Positions 2,296 to 11,707 of a stretch of DNA of 64,000 nt are shown here, in pieces. Numbering within the stretch: the stretch's first letter is position 1; each line of letters opens with the position of its first letter. Below the pieces are notes generated by a model. That model saw only the letters and a list, made by a program, of their open reading frames with translations. It was not told the DNA's origin and made no database searches. Source of the DNA: Dehalococcoidia bacterium (lineage in GTDB: Bacteria; Chloroflexota; Dehalococcoidia; Lucifugimonadales; QGNO01); contig CBDHED010000003.1 in assembly GCA_965261825.1 (NCBI GenBank), positions 135,090-199,089 of the forward strand. The letters run 5' to 3'. The translations under genes were made by a program, and so were the position numbers.

Positions 2296-3518
2296 CGCAA
2301 GCAGGGCCATTTAATAAGCTGCGTGTTATAGACCTAGCAACCGAGGTCGCCGGCCCCTTTGCCACAAAACTCTTCGCCGACTACGGCGCCGATGTGATCA
2401 AAGTGGAACCGGTTGGTGGTGAGCCGTCAAGGCGCATGGGGCCCTTTCACGAGGACGACCCTCATCCTGAAAAGAGCTTGACCTTCCTTTTCCTGAACTG
2501 TAACAAGCGCGGGGTCACACTGAATCTGGAGACAGAGGCCGGTAGGAAGATATTTCGCGAGTTGGTCAGGGGCGCCGACCTACTCGTGGAGAGCAACCCG
2601 CCCCGCTATCTCGAAGGGTTAGGTATAGGCTATCGCGAACTGGAGAACCTCAATCCCCAGCTCGTGATGACGTCCATTACACCTTTCGGTCGGACCGGGC
2701 CCTATCGGGATTTCAAAGGCAACGACTTGGTGTACTACGCATTCGGTGGGCAGATGTACGTCAGTGGCGCCTATGACCGAGAGCCGTTGAAGCACGGACA
2801 CCCTCAGAGCCTCTTCTTGGGTGGCATGGTTGCAGCACACGCCACCACTGCAGCTCTGTTTGCCAGAACTATGCTTGGCCGAGGCCAGCATATAGACCTA
2901 TCCTTGGCAGAGGTTATGGCGGCCGATCAATACCAGTCCGCCGTGCGCTACGCCTTCTCCGGTCAAGTGACCCGCCGAGCGCCCAAGAGCGACACCGGTG
3001 ACCCCAAGGGCACTGGATTCAACGGCATGGTCCGGGCCAAGGACGGCTATGTGCGTCTGTCGGTCAGCCCCCCGAATCGCCTCTACCCCAGGTCAGGGGA
3101 GACGCCGTGGAAAGATTACGCGGCCCTACTTGGCCATCCCGAGTTGGGACAGCCACTACAAGACGCCGAGAGCATCCAGGATATAGACTCACTCCTCTTG
3201 CCCGTCATCCGGGAGATGCCCAAGTTCGAGTATTTTCATAACCTGATGACCCAGGAGTGGGACGCAGCAGTGGCGCAGACCCCGGAAGATTTGGCCGGCA
3301 GCCCTCAGTTGGAAGACCGTGGCTTCTTCACCCAAGTAGAGCATCCTGTTGTAGGAAAGATAAGATTTCCCGGTGAGATTGTGAGGTTCTCCAAATCGCC
3401 ATGGAGCCTTCGTTTTCCCGCTCCGTTGTTGGGGCAGCACAATAGAGCGGTGTACTGCGGAGAGCTCGGTTACACAGATGAGGATGTCGTGAACCTTAGG
3501 CAGCTAGGCGTCATTTAG
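2292..3518 (+). CDS. family-III CoA-transferase-like, beta-type subunit, copy 1
   Basis: Motifs: LRVIDLATEVAGPFATKLFADYGADVIKVEP, ITPFGRTGPY, GRGQHIDLSLAEV. The start ATG overlaps the upstream stop (ATGA), which indicates translational coupling. Confidence 0.85.
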   Translation: MTQAGPFNKLRVIDLATEVAGPFATKLFADYGADVIKVEPVGGEPSRRMGPFHEDDPHPEKSLTFLFLNCNKRGVTLNLETEAGRKIFRELVRGADLLVESNPPRYLEGLGIGYRELENLNPQLVMTSITPFGRTGPYRDFKGNDLVYYAFGGQMYVSGAYDREPLKHGHPQSLFLGGMVAAHATTAALFARTMLGRGQHIDLSLAEVMAADQYQSAVRYAFSGQVTRRAPKSDTGDPKGTGFNGMVRAKDGYVRLSVSPPNRLYPRSGETPWKDYAALLGHPELGQPLQDAESIQDIDSLLLPVIREMPKFEYFHNLMTQEWDAAVAQTPEDLAGSPQLEDRGFFTQVEHPVVGKIRFPGEIVRFSKSPWSLRFPAPLLGQHNRAVYCGELGYTDEDVVNLRQLGVI

Positions 3519-4162
3519 CAGAGCCCGCGACACTCATCGTATGCATTTGCTTGCGAGTGGAACTACCCCTTCAACAGCGAGGATTTCAACCCCAGGCTCT
3601 ACTACGTGGCCAGGCTGTATAGAGATGGTACGCCCGCAGGGGCTGAAGATGTAAAATTCGTCAGGGGTTCCGAGAGACCACGAGCATCGAGTTCGACGTC
3701 TCAGGCATAGAGAGGAGAGGCAAGTTCACCGTGACGGCGACGCGCCTCCGCCGACGCCGGGCCTGATGGAGCCGAGGCCACGTACCACACCGTCGCTACA
3801 TAGCTCTAGTGAGGTACGGAGATAGTCATAGATCGGTTTCGTGAACCCGGCTGAACCCCTTGGCAACTCCCTGGGGACCCGCTTGCCTAGAGCGATCTCA
3901 CGGGAGTGGGCATCAAGCTAATGCAGGATACACATCCTTTGAGGAAATAAGAGCTCTAAGCTCTGTAGCCACTGATACTCAAAAACATCTCTGTCGTATT
4001 CCTCAATCATTGCCTTGACAGCGCTCTGAATCAGTGGTACAAGCTCGCTCACCTGATGCCTAAACGCTACCGTCTTGAATACCCATGACAAACCTAGAGA
4101 ACCTCTGGGTCCGTATCTCAGTTGGAGAATAGCGTACGCTCGGAGAAAAGGGGGAGGAACGA

Positions 4163-5524
4163 ATGTTGACCCAGACTTTCGAAGAGGCAATTACCGAGTA
4201 CATCGAACGGTGCAAGGAGGCAATTGGAAAAGAGAGAGACGAATATAGGCCCCCCGGCCCGGGGACTCCGTTTCCTTGGTCCTCGCCATATGAAGCGGCA
4301 TTAAGATTCGATTCCCGGACAATCCGCAACTACACCTTGGCTCACGGTGATGACAACCCCCTATTCATCGACCCAGAGTATGGCAAGAGGACGCGCTACG
4401 GCTCCCAACTAGTCCCTAACCCGGCCCTCATTTTGGTAAGAGGCGCCGGCGGCCAAGGACCAAACAGACCCCAGGGATACCCGGTAGGCGATTTCTTTTC
4501 CGGAGTCGCCTGGGACTACTACGATGTTGTCAGGCTTGGTGCCGCTCGTGTTAAGAACACCAAAACCACCACGGAGTTCTTTGAAAAGCAAGGCTCAAGA
4601 GGACGCTTGCTCTTCCTCATCGCGGAGAACCGGTATTGGGATGCCCACGCCGATTTGATAGCCATGTGCTACGGGACGCTTATTCTGGTCCCAATTGAAG
4701 CTATGGGCGGCGGTCGTGCCATGCCCGTGGAGCGCTTAGGCGAACAGCTAATGTACGAACGTAAGGCATCCCAGTACAATCGTGAGCAAGTAGACGAATG
4801 TCTTGCGACGATGAACCAGTCTTACCGACGTGGTGCGAATACACTCTACTGGGAAGACGTTCAGGTAGGAGACAAACTGGGGCCTCTAGTCCATCCACCA
4901 TTCACTCTCCTAGACCAGATATCAGGTGGCGTGGTCTCTGGCGCCACGCAAGGCCCCAGGCAGTATGAGGAGGGTGAGGATCTGACTCATGAGGGCCTTC
5001 AATTTGAGGGCGTGTTCCATCGGAATCGGAAGAGACCTGGAGGTGCGGGCACGCACCCCATTACTCGTTGGCCTTGGGGTCCCCGTGATGAGCACCCCGA
5101 TGCCGTAACCGCCCCGTTCCGCGGACAGCCGTTACCCTTTGACGGGGGGGTCAGGCGCACGCAAGCAGCCAACAGAATGCTGACAGACTGGATGGGTGAC
5201 GATGGGTTCATTCGGCGCTACCAGACCGCCCTACGCAAACCGCTGTATTACGGAGACACCACCATATATACGGGTGAGGTAGTAAGAAAGTTCAAAGAAG
5301 TGCAAGAGGGCAACGCCGAGCCTGGGGGCCAGCCCGGTAAGGCTGAGTACAACGTTGTAGGGATCAAACTGCAAGGGTCCAATCAACTGGAAGAGATCCA
5401 GATGCAGGGCACCGCAGCCATATATCTGCCCTCGCGAGAAACCGGGCCAGTTAAGTTACCCGTGCCCCACCCTGGGAATCCCCCGTACGTACCTTATGAA
5501 ACCTTCTATCGTGACTGGTATTGA
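4163..5524 (+). CDS. double hot-dog fold (MaoC/FAS1-dehydratase-like) protein, paralog B
   Basis: GGAGGA Shine-Dalgarno 4 nt upstream of the ATG. IRNYTLAHGDDNPLFIDPEYG resembles the MaoC_dehydrat_N / hydratase-2 segment. LYWEDVQVGDKLGP is a typical MaoC hot-dog entry. C-terminus VPYETFYRDWY. Confidence 0.85.
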   Translation: MLTQTFEEAITEYIERCKEAIGKERDEYRPPGPGTPFPWSSPYEAALRFDSRTIRNYTLAHGDDNPLFIDPEYGKRTRYGSQLVPNPALILVRGAGGQGPNRPQGYPVGDFFSGVAWDYYDVVRLGAARVKNTKTTTEFFEKQGSRGRLLFLIAENRYWDAHADLIAMCYGTLILVPIEAMGGGRAMPVERLGEQLMYERKASQYNREQVDECLATMNQSYRRGANTLYWEDVQVGDKLGPLVHPPFTLLDQISGGVVSGATQGPRQYEEGEDLTHEGLQFEGVFHRNRKRPGGAGTHPITRWPWGPRDEHPDAVTAPFRGQPLPFDGGVRRTQAANRMLTDWMGDDGFIRRYQTALRKPLYYGDTTIYTGEVVRKFKEVQEGNAEPGGQPGKAEYNVVGIKLQGSNQLEEIQMQGTAAIYLPSRETGPVKLPVPHPGNPPYVPYETFYRDWY

Positions 5525-5712
5525 ACGGCGGCTCGTTAGACCCAGAGCAGTATAACCGGAGGTAGCCGGCTTGGCAGTCCCCGCGTTACTAGCGCCGCTA
5601 CTCTTCTTCCATGGTAACAAGCGGCAAGCCCGTACCACGGACTTCGCCTCTCTACTGCTGCGTGACGGCTACCGTTGAATCGCGTTAGATCAGCGGGGAG
5701 ACGGCGACCGAG

Positions 5713-7512
5713 CTACCAGCCAAAGGCGTAAGCAGTGTTCCCTTTAGGCGAGGCGGCGCCTGAGATTGTGCCCCGCTCCTTGTCAAATTGGATCGCCATC
5801 ACCCTTCCATTGGCCCAGTCCCCCACGATGTCTATCTGGTGGCCTCGACTTTCCAGCTCACCGATAACCTCCGGGGGGATGCGACCTTCGGCGATGACCT
5901 TTGCGGGGTACGCCGCCCTGGGATAAAAGGAAGACGGGAAATGGTTGGAGTGCACGGTGGGTGCATCCAACGCCTCCTGTAGATTCATGCCGAACTCCAC
6001 GTAGTTCATGAAGAACTGTAGCGTCCACTGGTCTTGGGCATCTCCACCTGGCGTACCAAACACCATAAACGGTTCTCCTCTCTTGGTTACCAGGGATGGC
6101 GTCAGTGTTGCCCTGGGCCGCTTGTGTGGAGCCAATGCGTTGGGCCGCTCTGGATTCAGGTAGAACATCTGCCCCCTGGTGCCCAGCGGAAATCCCAATC
6201 CCTTGATGACGGGGGACGAGCGCAGCCACCCGCCGCTCGGCGTAGCGCTCACCATATTCCCTTCGTGGTCAACCGCATCCAGGTGTGTCGTGTCGTTTAT
6301 GTGTCCCTCTGTCGATCCGGACTGGGGCGCTTCAGCCACCGGCAGGCCAAGCGCTCTTCTGTTGTCTAGAGCTACGTCCAGAAGATCGTAGGAGAGACTT
6401 CCCCGGCCAACGTCTCCGGCAACAAGTTCTGTGGAGGCCTGAGCGCCGACAAGCTCTTGTCTTGCTGCGGCGTATCTCTCCGAAAGAAGCTTGGCCACGG
6501 GCACTTCATCAAACATCGGGTCGCCGTAGTAGGCTTCCCGATCAGCGAACGCCAGTTTCGCCGACTCGATCCAGGTATGCAGGTAGTTAGCGGAGTTGTG
6601 GCCCATGCTCTTGAGATCGAACCCGTTCAATATTGCGAGCGTCTGAAGGAAAACCAGGCCCTGCGTCCAGGGAGGGCATTTGTGTACATCCAGTCCTCGA
6701 AAGCTATAGGTCACTGGATCCTCTACTTGTGCGTGCCACTCTGCAATATCCTCGTAAGATAACAGTCCCCTATGAGACTTGCCGCTGGCGTCTTCCACCG
6801 GGTTCTCACTGATGAACCTGGCAATGCGTTCGGCAATGTCTCCCTTATAGAAGGCGTCACGCGCTGCCTCTATGCCACTCGTCCGACCCTTGTGTTGGGC
6901 CTCCTTTTCAGCACGGACCATCGTCTTGAGCACATCGGCCCAGTCCTGGTTGCGGATTACATCCCCCAACTCAGGGGCTCGGCCAAAGGGCCAATAAACC
7001 TCACCGGTTGTCGGGTAAAGCTCTCCTAAACTATCGGCGTACTCGGCAAGCCTGGTCTGCAGTGTCGGGTAGAGGACAAATCCATTCTCGGCCAGATCAA
7101 TCGCGGGTTGGAGCACCTGGGCAAACGACATGGTGCCCCACCTTGCTAAGGCTACAGCCCATGTGTCCACTACAGCGGGCACGCAGGCGGGCAAATACCC
7201 GTCTCCCGGGATGAGGTCAATGCCGTTGTCACGGCACCAGTCAATGGTAAACGCTTTTGGCGTCCATCCCATGCCGCTGATGGCATACGTCCTACCTTCA
7301 CGCGCCGAGTAGATTAGCGTAGGCACTTCGCCGCCAATACCGCAGCTGGCTGGCTCCAGTATGTTCAGACAGAAACACATGGCGGCCGCCGCGTCTATGG
7401 CATTGCCGCCTTGGTCCATGATACGGAAGCCTGCAGCCGTAGCCAGGTAATGTCCTGAGGTTACCACTCCTCGCGTCCCCAGAATCACCGGTCGAGTTGT
7501 GAAAGTCCCCAT
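5713..7512 (-). CDS. gamma-glutamyltranspeptidase (GGT) family protein; no obvious signal peptide
   Basis: 599 aa. INDTTHLDAVDHEGNMVSATPSGG fits the autoprocessing Thr region, and FGTPGGDAQDQ is also present. GGAGGGAG Shine-Dalgarno upstream. Confidence 0.85.
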   Translation of the reverse strand: MGTFTTRPVILGTRGVVTSGHYLATAAGFRIMDQGGNAIDAAAAMCFCLNILEPASCGIGGEVPTLIYSAREGRTYAISGMGWTPKAFTIDWCRDNGIDLIPGDGYLPACVPAVVDTWAVALARWGTMSFAQVLQPAIDLAENGFVLYPTLQTRLAEYADSLGELYPTTGEVYWPFGRAPELGDVIRNQDWADVLKTMVRAEKEAQHKGRTSGIEAARDAFYKGDIAERIARFISENPVEDASGKSHRGLLSYEDIAEWHAQVEDPVTYSFRGLDVHKCPPWTQGLVFLQTLAILNGFDLKSMGHNSANYLHTWIESAKLAFADREAYYGDPMFDEVPVAKLLSERYAAARQELVGAQASTELVAGDVGRGSLSYDLLDVALDNRRALGLPVAEAPQSGSTEGHINDTTHLDAVDHEGNMVSATPSGGWLRSSPVIKGLGFPLGTRGQMFYLNPERPNALAPHKRPRATLTPSLVTKRGEPFMVFGTPGGDAQDQWTLQFFMNYVEFGMNLQEALDAPTVHSNHFPSSFYPRAAYPAKVIAEGRIPPEVIGELESRGHQIDIVGDWANGRVMAIQFDKERGTISGAASPKGNTAYAFGW

Positions 7513-7762
7513 AGCTCCCTCCCTAGCCTAAGCTCCATGTGATGTACCTAGCCATCTTATTCATGGAACCTTACCAGAGGCAGACAGGACGGCCAATACC
7601 TCCTCGCTCGTAACATGTTCAAGCTCAAAGTAGGCTTTCTTATCTCATCATCATTGAGTATCACGCTGGAATAGGCCAAGAACCACTGATTCCCCGCGTA
7701 TCCTTCAATGGCAAGACTGTCGTCATGGTACATGCGGAAGCAGGGGGCCGCGTCGCTGACCG

Positions 7763-7984
7763 ATGAGTGCCCCGACACTGACCGTCCTCGGCCTCGGCGG
7801 AGGCGTCCAGTCCTCCGTCATGGAGCTCATTTCATGGGTCCAAATCCGGATAAGAGGTAGACACCCACGACCAAGCATGTCGTATACTGCCTTTACCGGT
7901 CTATATAGGGAAGCATACCGATTGCGCGTATGGTTCATGATGACCAATAACCCAATACGGAATCCCCATAGAACGAACGTCTAG
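7763..7984 (+). pseudogene. possible remnant of a PP-loop (PAPS-reductase-like) gene; only about 20 N-terminal residues are recognisable
   Basis: MSAPTLTVLGLGGGVQSSVM resembles the N-terminal nucleotide-binding loop of phage-type PAPS-reductase family proteins. The rest of the ORF has no protein-like character. Confidence 0.2.
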
Positions 7985-7994
7985 TACATATGAT

Positions 7995-8399
7995 ATGCCG
8001 ATACCATTAGAGGTTGTTATAGAGCGCACTCCGCTATCCCAGCAGGCTGACCGCCGCCGCTTGAGAGCTTGGAAGCGGGTGGTGCGGAATGCTGTGGGAG
8101 AAGAGTGGGACGCTGAACCGCCCTTCGCCGGAGAAGTCATGGTGGGCATCACCTACTACTTCAAAGGAGAGTCTCTGGATGTCGACAATATGCCGAAGCC
8201 AATCCTGGACGCACTGAAGGGGCTGGTCTATGCCGACGACGACCAAATAACCGACCTCGTCTGCCGCAAGAGAACCCGGGATAGAGACCTGCAATTTGAG
8301 AACCCGTCACCCGTTCTGCTGGAAACGCTCGGACGATCCGAGCAGTTTCTCCACATCACCGTGAACGAAGCACTGAGCCTGGAGGTGCCATCTTGGTGA
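7995..8399 (+). CDS. RusA-family Holliday-junction resolvase-like endonuclease
   Basis: 134 aa. LDVDNMPKPILDALKGLVYADDDQI matches the RusA acidic/Lys core (D-x-D-N-x2-K-x3-D-A-L...D-D-x-Q). Confidence 0.7.
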   Translation: MPIPLEVVIERTPLSQQADRRRLRAWKRVVRNAVGEEWDAEPPFAGEVMVGITYYFKGESLDVDNMPKPILDALKGLVYADDDQITDLVCRKRTRDRDLQFENPSPVLLETLGRSEQFLHITVNEALSLEVPSW

Positions 8400-9049
8400 G
8401 AGACGCAACCGACTCCGAATACCTACTCACGCACAAGACCGCAGAAGAGTACCGAAGCAAGGGCTACCAGGTCCTGTTGGAAGCGCCGCTGGACTTCATG
8501 CCGGGATTCAGAGCCGATCTGCTTGTTCGGAAGGGCGATGAGGCGAGGGTCATAGAAGTGAAGTCCAGAGCGTCACTGGCCGCCGACCCCAAGATAAGCG
8601 AGCTGGCGCGACTCATCGAGTCGATGCCAGGGTGGACTTTTGAGCTGGTTCTGGTGGGTGAACCGGAAAAGGTGGACTCGCCCGAAGGCGCACGTTCGTT
8701 TGAGAGCGATGGGATTCTGCAAAGGCTCGAAGAAGCCGAGAGATCTCTCCAAGCGGAATTACCGGAGGGGGCCTTCCTGCTCGCATGGTCGGCTTCTGAA
8801 GCCGTCATCAGAGAACTGCTTACAGCGCAGGGGGTATCCAGCAGGAGCATCACCTCGCCCGGTTATGTTCTCGACCAGGGGATATACCGTGGGGTCATCT
8901 CTAGGAACGACTACGACGCTCTGACCCGTATGCGAAAGTACAGAAACGCTATCGTCCATGGTTTCGGCACATACGACTTCAACGGTGAACTGGTAACGGA
9001 GCTCATTGCCACCATAAGACGCATCATGGCGAGGCGTTTTAGGGATTAG
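8393..9049 (+). CDS. PD-(D/E)xK nuclease-like N-domain fused to a C-terminal HEPN domain
   Basis: RADLLVRKGDEARVIEVKS gives D42...E55-x-K57, a restriction-endonuclease-like triad. YRNAIVHGF at nt 8942-8959 is a canonical HEPN R-N-x3-H motif. The start (TTG 8393 or GTG 8396) overlaps the RusA-like stop. Confidence 0.65.
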   Translation: MVRDATDSEYLLTHKTAEEYRSKGYQVLLEAPLDFMPGFRADLLVRKGDEARVIEVKSRASLAADPKISELARLIESMPGWTFELVLVGEPEKVDSPEGARSFESDGILQRLEEAERSLQAELPEGAFLLAWSASEAVIRELLTAQGVSSRSITSPGYVLDQGIYRGVISRNDYDALTRMRKYRNAIVHGFGTYDFNGELVTELIATIRRIMARRFRD

Positions 9050-9190
9050 GTCCATGGGCAAGTAGCCCTTGACGACTCGGTTCTGTCTACCGTCCACTTA
9101 GGCCCACCAAAGAGGAATCGAACGGGTCGTAGGGCACCAGTTGCTAGTTGGCACACCCCTTTCGTCGCCCCGCTTTACCTACCCGGCTTT

Positions 9191-11707
<2,517 letters not shown>

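Follow-up and report, generated by a model that had tools for sequence, protein, structure and literature searches.

The 64,000-nucleotide stretch of DNA analyzed here, called the window in the following, comes from a Dehalococcoidia bacterium of the phylum Chloroflexota (GenBank assembly GCA_965261825.1, contig CBDHED010000003.1, positions 135,090 to 199,089 of the forward strand). On the forward strand it carries two overlapping genes, one predicted to encode a RusA-family Holliday-junction resolvase (gene 1, 7995..8399, 134 amino acids) and the other a protein of 218 amino acids in which a Hjc-like nuclease domain of the PD-(D/E)xK type is joined to a HEPN domain (gene 2, 8393..9049). The analysis of this pair, of its relatives in other genomes and of its possible function is described below.

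Gene 1 ends with TCT TGG TGA, its TGA stop being at 8397-8399, and two possible start codons of gene 2, TTG (8393-8395) and GTG (8396-8398), lie inside this end. The start of gene 2 was placed at 8393, because its homologs begin with MVR... at the matching position and because one relative (L007) has ATG at the codon that reads TTG in the window; the overlap is therefore 7 nucleotides (nt). A Shine-Dalgarno sequence for gene 2, GGAGGT, was read from the forward strand at 8381..8386, within the codons for a conserved C-terminal (Q/L)-E-V of RusA and 6 nt before the TTG. An overlap of 7 nt or 1 nt (TGATG), together with GGAGGT or GAGGT in the 3' end of the RusA gene, was found at the seven loci inspected, which belong to several phyla. 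An initial annotation, made without database searches, had placed both open reading frames (ORFs) and the two alternative starts at these positions and had proposed that the genes are translationally coupled; the former is borne out by the sequence, and the conserved overlap and internal Shine-Dalgarno sequence speak for the latter.

The gene 1 product matched the Pfam family RusA (PF05866) with 48 bits (cut-off 22.8, E = 2.5e-12) over residues 18-96. Single-sequence searches of the PDB with either protein gave only noise, and profiles were needed to obtain PDB matches. A profile that combined eight partners of different phyla matched E. coli RusA (1q8r), with DxDN..K..DAL..DDxQV aligned. In E. 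coli RusA the catalytic acidic triad consists of D70, D72 and D91, and is accompanied by a conserved Lys. Residues D62 (8178-8180), D64 (8184-8186), D82 (8238-8240) and K68 of gene 1 align with DLDN..K..DDAQV of 1q8r. The AlphaFold2 model of the protein had a predicted local distance difference test score (pLDDT) of 77 and a predicted template-modeling score of 0.75, and its best seven Foldseek matches in the PDB were all E. coli RusA (probability 1.0, target-normalized template-modeling score (TM-score) 0.56–0.72). Profile, alignment and model together identify gene 1 as a RusA-family junction resolvase with an intact catalytic Asp triad.

In gene 2, residues 8-113 (8414..8731) matched the Pfam family REase_AHJR-like (PF18743) with 76.3 bits (cut-off 26.1, E = 1.9e-21). 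A profile of 60 diverse relatives matched 2eo0, 4tkk and 1hh1, and aligned the PD...E-V-K motif to the catalytic motif of Sulfolobus Hjc/ST1444; by this alignment the nuclease residues of the window copy are E9, D42 (8516-8518), E55 (8555-8557) and K57 (8561-8563). The AlphaFold2 model of gene 2 (pLDDT 89.4) has the order helix-strand-strand-strand-helix-strand in its N-terminal part, followed by C-terminal helices at residues 105-120, 124-145, 156-165, 171-188 and 198-217, mostly with pLDDT >90. Foldseek matched the N-terminal domain to Hjc (4tkd), Hje (1ob8), ST1444 (2eo0), AF1548 and Bax1 with probability 0.6–0.9, the TM-scores for this domain being low because the query had two domains. 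The C-terminal bundle (residues 105-217, 8705..9043) matched the HEPN protein 2hsb (target-normalized TM-score 0.71, root-mean-square deviation 2.1, probability 1.0), the HepT toxins in the MntA-HepT complexes 5yep, 6m6u and 7bxo (probability 0.97–0.99), and also 1wol, 1ufb, 1o3u, 3o10 and sacsin HEPN. It contains the motif R184-N-A-I-V-H189 (8942-8959). Gene 2 is thereby identified, from profiles, predicted structure and catalytic residues, as a fusion of a Hjc-like PD-(D/E)xK domain with a HEPN domain bearing RNxxxH. The initial annotation had read the two proteins as a RusA-family resolvase and as a PD-(D/E)xK nuclease fused to HEPN; all the residues it listed (D62-x-D64-N65, K68, D72 and D81-D83 in RusA; D42, E55-x-K57 and RNAIVH in gene 2) are there, and the Pfam match, the predicted fold and the Asp triad of gene 1 agree with its reading as RusA, as both folds of gene 2 do with the proposed fusion.

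The gene 2 family is large, with 1733 clusters at 50% identity for E <= 0.001 and 823 for E <= 1e-10, nearly all with proteins of about 220 amino acids. Among 60 diverse members, all 60 matched PF18743, 16 matched Pfam HepT-like (best E = 1.4e-6) and 16 matched Pfam Hjc, while RNxxxH was present in 91 of 102 full-length representatives. Some members are named 'HepT-like ribonuclease domain-containing protein' or 'DUF86 family' at NCBI or JGI, and some relatives scored above the cut-offs of HEPN-clan families (P0185, HEPN 23.5; P0216, HepT-like 23.6; P0187, MtlR 25.2). Variant architectures were also seen (P0164, P0264, P0185, P0216 and P0187). In some of these an XRE-type helix-turn-helix (HTH) lies N-terminal to the AHJR-like and HEPN parts, and P0185 is a single ORF that joins RusA, AHJR-like and HEPN. 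Longer forms of the family have a second HEPN-like region (663 amino acids) or matches to HEPN of the MtlR/DUF4145 type.

The degree of residue conservation differed between the three predicted nuclease sites, as counted in 84 non-redundant RusA/gene 2 pairs. In RusA, D62, D64, D72, D82 and D87 were each present in 84/84. In the HEPN domain R184 and R140 were found in 84/84 and H189 in 83/84; the residue two positions after the His (F191 in the window) was F in 75/84, Y in 5/84 and L in 3/84. In the restriction-endonuclease-like (REase) domain D42 was kept in 81/84, E55 only in 69/84 (A, L or Q in 14) and K57 in 73/84 (R in 8). Since the HEPN and RusA sites are invariant or nearly so and E55 and K57 vary, the HEPN RNase site and the RusA site are read as indispensable and the Hjc-like DNase site as mostly retained and repeatedly given up. 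The loss of the DNase site fits a Hjc-like domain whose core job would be DNA recognition.

The two genes are closely linked throughout the family. A RusA alignment served as the query against GTDB, each species being represented by one genome, and yielded 280 relatives among 185,579 species genomes; in the best 80 of these 280, gene 2 lies directly downstream of RusA at 78 loci, and the other two (L058 and L078) are damaged copies. Seen from the side of gene 2, RusA was immediately upstream and overlapping in every context looked up, including Chloroflexota relatives with 70–93% identity, a 48% relative, Nostoc (37%), a metagenome-assembled genome (MAG) of Nitrospinae and others. The RusA-plus-fusion arrangement is kept from 96% down to 25% identity, and its hosts, which represent at least seven bacterial phyla, include Chloroflexota, Cyanobacteria, Nitrospinota, Acidobacteriota, Spirochaetota and Proteobacteria. 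Even the homologs with 25–29% identity on the Agrobacterium plasmid pTi_CFBP2177 and on a Rhizobium plasmid have RusA followed by the fusion, with a 1-nt overlap. The identity matrices of RusA and of the gene 2 protein were strongly correlated (Mantel r = 0.77, reached by 0/999 permutations). The ratio of nonsynonymous to synonymous substitution rates (dN/dS) against nine relatives was 0.08–0.20 across both genes, and 0.10–0.15 for gene 2. When 959 ORFs flanking the pair at 93 loci were clustered, no third conserved partner gene emerged. These comparisons of sequences show that the pair is inherited as a unit, co-evolves and is under purifying selection. The initial annotation had stated that a lack of co-occurrence in other genomes would count against its proposal; co-occurrence is strongly present, both at the 78/80 loci and in all contexts found with gene 2. 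Chance ORFs or pseudogenes were also considered as an explanation, and are ruled out by the dN/dS values and the family size.

Some loci depart from the usual arrangement. In L078 an amber codon (about 4256-4258) takes the place of the conserved Q84 of RusA, and the partner gene looks intact. In L058 an insertion sequence (IS) element with a DDE transposase (4405-5759) lies between RusA and the REase-HEPN gene. At L093 (2900-5200) a single RusA gene is framed by two complete REase-HEPN genes, at 3179-3880 and at 4390-5064, in a tandem array; a 123-nt sequence is repeated perfectly, right before RusA and right after the second REase-HEPN gene, and a partial copy of the 3' end lies further upstream. 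It was also found that one MAG contains two copies of the pair.

The only conserved sequence 5' of RusA is a leader of about 37–38 nt (7958-7994 in the window; shared with L001 and L015-L022), which ends ...TAGCACATATAGATATG. Within this leader no Shine-Dalgarno sequence precedes the RusA ATG, and an A/T-rich, TATAGA-like box lies directly in front of the start codon; the transcript might be leaderless. Scans of 7500-9650 for sigma-70 promoters and intrinsic terminators found none, a consensus scan of this kind saying little for Chloroflexota. At the other end of the pair, the in-frame stop of gene 2 (9047-9049) removes about nine tail codons compared with relatives of 227 amino acids, and tblastn alignments continue past the stop to 9067. 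DNA homology to relatives stops near 9032, and the final residues have diverged (ARRFRD vs TTPTLHDGSNGPTPP), so that 9032..9067 on the forward strand, as judged from blastn end-points, tblastn and comparison of the protein tails, represents a diverged and shortened 3' tail of gene 2. The early stop is probably without consequence, the tail being poorly conserved in the family as a whole.

The pair is flanked by a GGT-family gene (PF01019) and by katG, whose product shows two peroxidase stretches, with intergenic lengths of 482 nt and 525 nt; the unrelated housekeeping neighbors and the spacers of about 480 and 525 nt given in the initial annotation were thus correct. The G+C content of the cassette (0.57–0.59) equals that of its flanks. 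In the katG region (9800-11400) it is 0.63–0.65, vs 0.55–0.59 around it. No tRNA, tmRNA or Rfam family was detected in the whole 64-kb window (ARAGORN, and Rfam at gathering thresholds).

The sequence between the GGT-family gene and gene 1 gave a clue to the origin of the window copy. Compared with its closest relatives (84–92% DNA identity), homology detected by blastn is restricted to 7755-9032, and the flanks are otherwise unrelated. In eight of the relatives (L015-L022; for example L020, 304-8139) the pair lies inside an integrative element that encodes a large serine recombinase, a Replic_Relax protein, HTH proteins, a conserved membrane protein and a PAPS-reductase-like protein. The PAPS-reductase-like gene is located directly upstream of RusA in the element; it is intact in L020 (278 amino acids, PAPS_reduct) and shortened in L017 in the same way as in the window, where an ORF at 7763-7984 on the forward strand corresponds to its truncated N-terminus. 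The window retains about 240 nt of the element (7755..7994, forward strand, including the short conserved leader; blastn homology starts at 7755-7772), and the remainder is absent. The sequence comparison thus shows the window pair to be a leftover of a serine-recombinase element, stranded between the GGT-family gene and katG. The initial annotation had described the sequence 5' of the pair as gene debris. Debris it is, and its identity can now be refined to a remnant of this element with a truncated PAPS-reductase-like gene. An empty GGT-katG site for comparison was not found: no exact match to the window GGT protein is on record, and among 55 loci from a metagenome scan for GGT (<=75% identity) none had katG synteny or the cassette.

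The pair moves horizontally, as a compact unit of about 1.1 kb with sharp ends, and the window holds an intact copy of it. Different copies occupy different and unrelated sites, each clade having its own, and homology between the loci ends within about 40 nt of the genes. Copies in Vicinamibacterales, Spirochaetia, Arenicellales, Paracoccaceae and Salinibacteraceae are 50–60% identical to those of the window, and cyanobacterial members, to judge from the Nostoc copies, are about 37–42% identical to the window proteins. Many of the MAG names of the hosts of L014-L093 (SB066x, IRC1, RHO3, Plut) are of the kind given to bins of sponge or coral symbionts. Together with the copies outside Chloroflexota, these names suggest exchange within a shared habitat; binning errors are possible for some, as L034 shares a 3-kb flank with a Dehalococcoidia locus. 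On pTi_CFBP2177 (L094) the pair adjoins ligD, a cassette of imuA and a Y-family polymerase, and a 644-amino-acid GHKL (HATPase_c_3) ATPase. On Rhizobium pT136b (L095) it adjoins a DUF6088/AbiEii pair, an IS5 element and another 'ATP-binding protein'. The pair has also been encountered in natural populations: Chen, Christiansen, Deng and Kurmayer (2016; PMC4766695) described, from the mcyT-mcyD spacer of Planktothrix rubescens, an insertion of 1194 bp that is present in 20.6% of filaments, contains only a RusA ORF and an ORF for a putative Holliday junction resolvase, and lacks a transposase and terminal inverted repeats. In the current study Planktothrix RusA homologs were among the best matches to the RusA subfamily of the window.

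With regard to function, it is proposed that the pair is a conflict module resembling toxin-antitoxin (TA) or abortive-infection systems, in which a HEPN effector is combined with recognition of branched DNA by the Hjc-like domain and with processing of that DNA by RusA. This proposal, which is based on conservation and gene arrangement, is a tentative one, and we give it a little less than an even chance of being correct. A small defence or addiction cassette, as suggested in the initial annotation, is a plausible role and still the leading candidate. The effector would be the HEPN RNase, in which the active site hardly varies. The Hjc-like domain would bring the effector to branched DNA such as four-way junctions and forks, or would sense such DNA, of the kind made by replicating or recombining invaders. 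RusA would cut the same structures and would in this way limit or time the activity of the effector in uninfected cells. Such a logic would resemble that of the enzymes which destroy the activating ligand of other HEPN RNases, and would be unlike that of an antitoxin that only binds its toxin; the invariance of its catalytic triad is the reason for assigning RusA a role beyond that of a binding antitoxin. RusA probably processes the same DNA structures as the Hjc-like domain would recognize, and would so limit the effector. The pair has several traits of conflict or selfish modules, namely a compact overlapping bicistronic operon, a patchy and mobile distribution, carriage on plasmids and integrative elements, duplication (the two copies in one MAG and the array at L093), the insertion polymorphism in Planktothrix, and a HEPN domain that is closest to the HepT toxins.

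Several results weigh against this proposal. The neighbors of the pair are mostly housekeeping genes (PhoU, CoA-transferase, asparaginase, ribosomal protein S2, GlnA, LigA), and by raw count only a few of 150 immediate neighbors at about 77 loci were defence-like (a type I methyltransferase, SoFic, SduA, AbiEi and two HepT-like_2), so that guilt by association with defence islands is weak. No family of PADLOC-DB v2 matched either protein at E <= 1; the comparison with defence databases and neighbors recommended in the initial annotation gave only a weak link to defence islands. Residues 110-212 of the window gene 2 remained below the thresholds of the HEPN-clan Pfam families (HepT-like 16.5 vs 23.5 bits, HEPN 13.4 vs 22), and of the Pfam and profile checks recommended at the same time, those for RusA and AHJR-like exceeded the cut-offs while the HEPN domain of the window protein is backed by its fold. 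If the amber codon in the RusA of L078, with its intact partner, and the IS element between the genes of L058 are genuine, cells can survive the effector when RusA is lacking. Finally, an antitoxin would need no invariant catalytic triad, and the ligand-processing role assigned to RusA instead is a conjecture.

Part of this evidence would also suit an accessory module for recombination or repair that is not toxic at all, in which both junction nucleases, RusA and the Hjc-like domain, act on branched DNA in the service of the host or of the element that carries them, and HEPN clears RNA from hybrids or R-loops, or serves for dimerization. Three nuclease sites under purifying selection and an invariant RusA triad are in agreement with such a module, as is the finding that most copies are solitary, with housekeeping genes and not defence islands around them. 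The location on pTi_CFBP2177 beside ligD and the imuA/Y-family polymerase cassette points in the same direction, and the disrupted RusA next to an intact partner in L078 suggests that there is no addiction. However, we know of no junction-resolution pathway that includes a HEPN RNase, and the essentially invariant R and H of HEPN argue for RNase catalysis and not for a scaffold. The patchy occurrence (280 relatives in 185,579 species genomes), the variable location and the carriage on plasmids and elements are also unexpected for a repair function, and the presence/absence polymorphism in Planktothrix (PMC4766695) is unlike a core one. A repair role is therefore considered rather unlikely, though it is by no means negligible.

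The pair could also be a selfish cassette that mobilizes itself, its own nucleases driving insertion or copying by a homing-like or Campbell-type route and RusA resolving the junctions, with no transposase or integrase involved. The sharp ends of the cassette are in favor of this: the L001 locus and the element-borne copies have in common only the sequence from 38 nt before the RusA ATG to 0–1 nt after the gene 2 stop, and upstream sharing of the window with L001 and L014 is confined to the 37-nt leader. From the limits of sharing between L001 and the element-borne copies, the transferred unit is about 1.1 kb with sharp ends. The Planktothrix insertion, with two ORFs and neither terminal inverted repeats nor a transposase (PMC4766695), has similar properties.

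Long direct repeats of target DNA, which flank four independent insertions (the 95th percentile of the null distribution being 11 nt), are likewise in favor of a self-mobilizing cassette. In L001, L002, L003 and L014 the repeats are 171–174 nt long with 96–98% identity, and the 3' end of an acyl-CoA dehydrogenase gene has been duplicated (in L001 the copies are at 5144-5317 and 6697-6870). The other flanking repeats are of 36 + 53 nt (L024), 55 nt (L055) and 123 nt (L093), and no recombinase gene is found between the repeats. They far exceed transposon target duplications in length. On the other hand, most of the loci compared have no flanking repeats, and neither conserved terminal sequences nor inverted repeats were found at the ends of the cassettes. 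Moreover, the insertion sites are unrelated, unlike those of a site-specific homing enzyme, the repeat in L093 belongs to a tandem array, and serine-recombinase elements, plasmids and ordinary recombination could account for the spread; the HEPN domain would have no role. Self-mobilization as the main function of the pair is thus judged to be quite improbable.

A more specific form of the conflict-module proposal combines both aspects. In this form the pair would be a structure-sensing immunity or addiction module of a new type, in which HEPN is switched on by branched DNA at the Hjc-like domain and RusA acts as the off-switch, and which possibly mobilizes itself without a transposase and leaves long target duplications. 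It is offered as a long shot.

The initial annotation had raised the possibility of a domesticated phage module. Such an origin, or that of a decaying prophage remnant with RusA as the phage resolvase, is largely refuted and highly improbable, since, although RusA is best known from lambdoid prophages and the window copy adjoins gene debris, a tblastn search of 50,697 phage records returned nothing for gene 2, the window RusA has only two weak partial phage matches, a RusA profile found just two distant relatives in the 2.9 million viral contigs of IMG/VR, none of the 93 loci contains phage structural genes, and the debris traces back to an integrative element of the serine-recombinase/replication-relaxation type.

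Many TA, abortive-infection and CRISPR-ancillary systems use HEPN RNases as effectors, and the way in which these are controlled differs between systems. In the large family described here a HEPN RNase is paired with two nucleases of the junction-resolvase type, and not with a nucleotidyltransferase, CARF or ATPase partner; we regard it as a two-gene module built on HEPN whose partner, RusA, is of a new type. The pair is unusual in its combination of nucleases, widespread and compact, and there are hints of mobility without a transposase. If RusA does control the RNase via branched DNA, HEPN effectors would have a control logic of a new kind, and cells or mobile elements a novel means of reading the replication or recombination of an invader. 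Any function would be of ecological relevance, given the polymorphism in the bloom-forming Planktothrix and the host names that suggest sponge and coral symbionts.

The initial annotation had not recognized the combination as a described system. This holds in part. The REase-HEPN fusion is listed in one table line by Anantharaman, Makarova, Burroughs, Koonin and Aravind (2013; PMC3710099), who read such fusions as conflict effectors that target DNA plus RNA. RusA is mentioned neither in the text nor in the supplement of that study, and AHJR is not mentioned in the supplement. The domain architecture in the 2013 catalog and in PF18743 is equal to that of gene 2, whereas the obligate RusA partner, the size of the family and its mobility are not described there. 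The Planktothrix insertion of 2016 contains the same pair in a cyanobacterial host; it was taken as a neutral marker, HEPN was not recognized and no function was proposed. In the literature no functional study of an AHJR/HEPN or RusA/HEPN pair was found, nor one of RusA as an antitoxin, with HepT or in defence. We could not find a description of the obligate partnership with RusA across phyla, of the family size, of the sharply bounded mobile unit or of the conservation pattern.

The known system most similar in organization is HepT/MntA, a type VII TA system (DUF86/PF01934). Both have a HEPN protein with RNxxxH, a two-gene operon with an upstream overlapping partner, and a patchy, mobile distribution. 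In the present pair, however, the partner is RusA and not a minimal nucleotidyltransferase (MNT), and HEPN carries an additional N-terminal Hjc-like domain. The position two residues after the HEPN His, F191 in the window, is presumably that of the Tyr in HepT which is AMPylated by MntA. No MNT nucleotidyltransferase is conserved near the pair, the upstream partner being RusA at every locus, and the control mechanism of HepT/MntA is therefore not applicable.

Each of the two nucleases also has a well-characterized counterpart. Gene 1 resembles RusA of E. coli and lambdoid prophages (PF05866; 1q8r, 2h8c) in fold (TM-score 0.64–0.72), catalytic core and size (about 120–135 amino acids), but the subfamily of the window is coupled to a REase-HEPN gene, is essentially absent from phages and has only about 17% identity to the E. 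coli protein. The N-terminal domain of gene 2 shares the PD-(D/E)xK fold and the E...D42...E55-x-K57 residues with archaeal Hjc and Hje (PF01870) and with the type IIS enzyme BpuJI, and its motif spacing and numbering are equal to those of Sulfolobus Hjc. Unlike Hjc and Hje, it is bacterial and fused to HEPN, its catalytic Glu has been lost in about 17% of pairs, and its specificity for junctions is putative.

The regulation proposed here has its nearest parallel in the Csm6/Csx1 proteins of type III CRISPR systems and their ring nucleases. The pair has no CARF or SAVED domain, no cyclic-oligoadenylate signaling and no CRISPR context, and the comparison, drawn from the conservation pattern together with inference, is one of analogy and not of homology. 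What the two would have in common is their logic, in that a HEPN RNase is combined with a sensor and with a separate enzyme that destroys the ligand.

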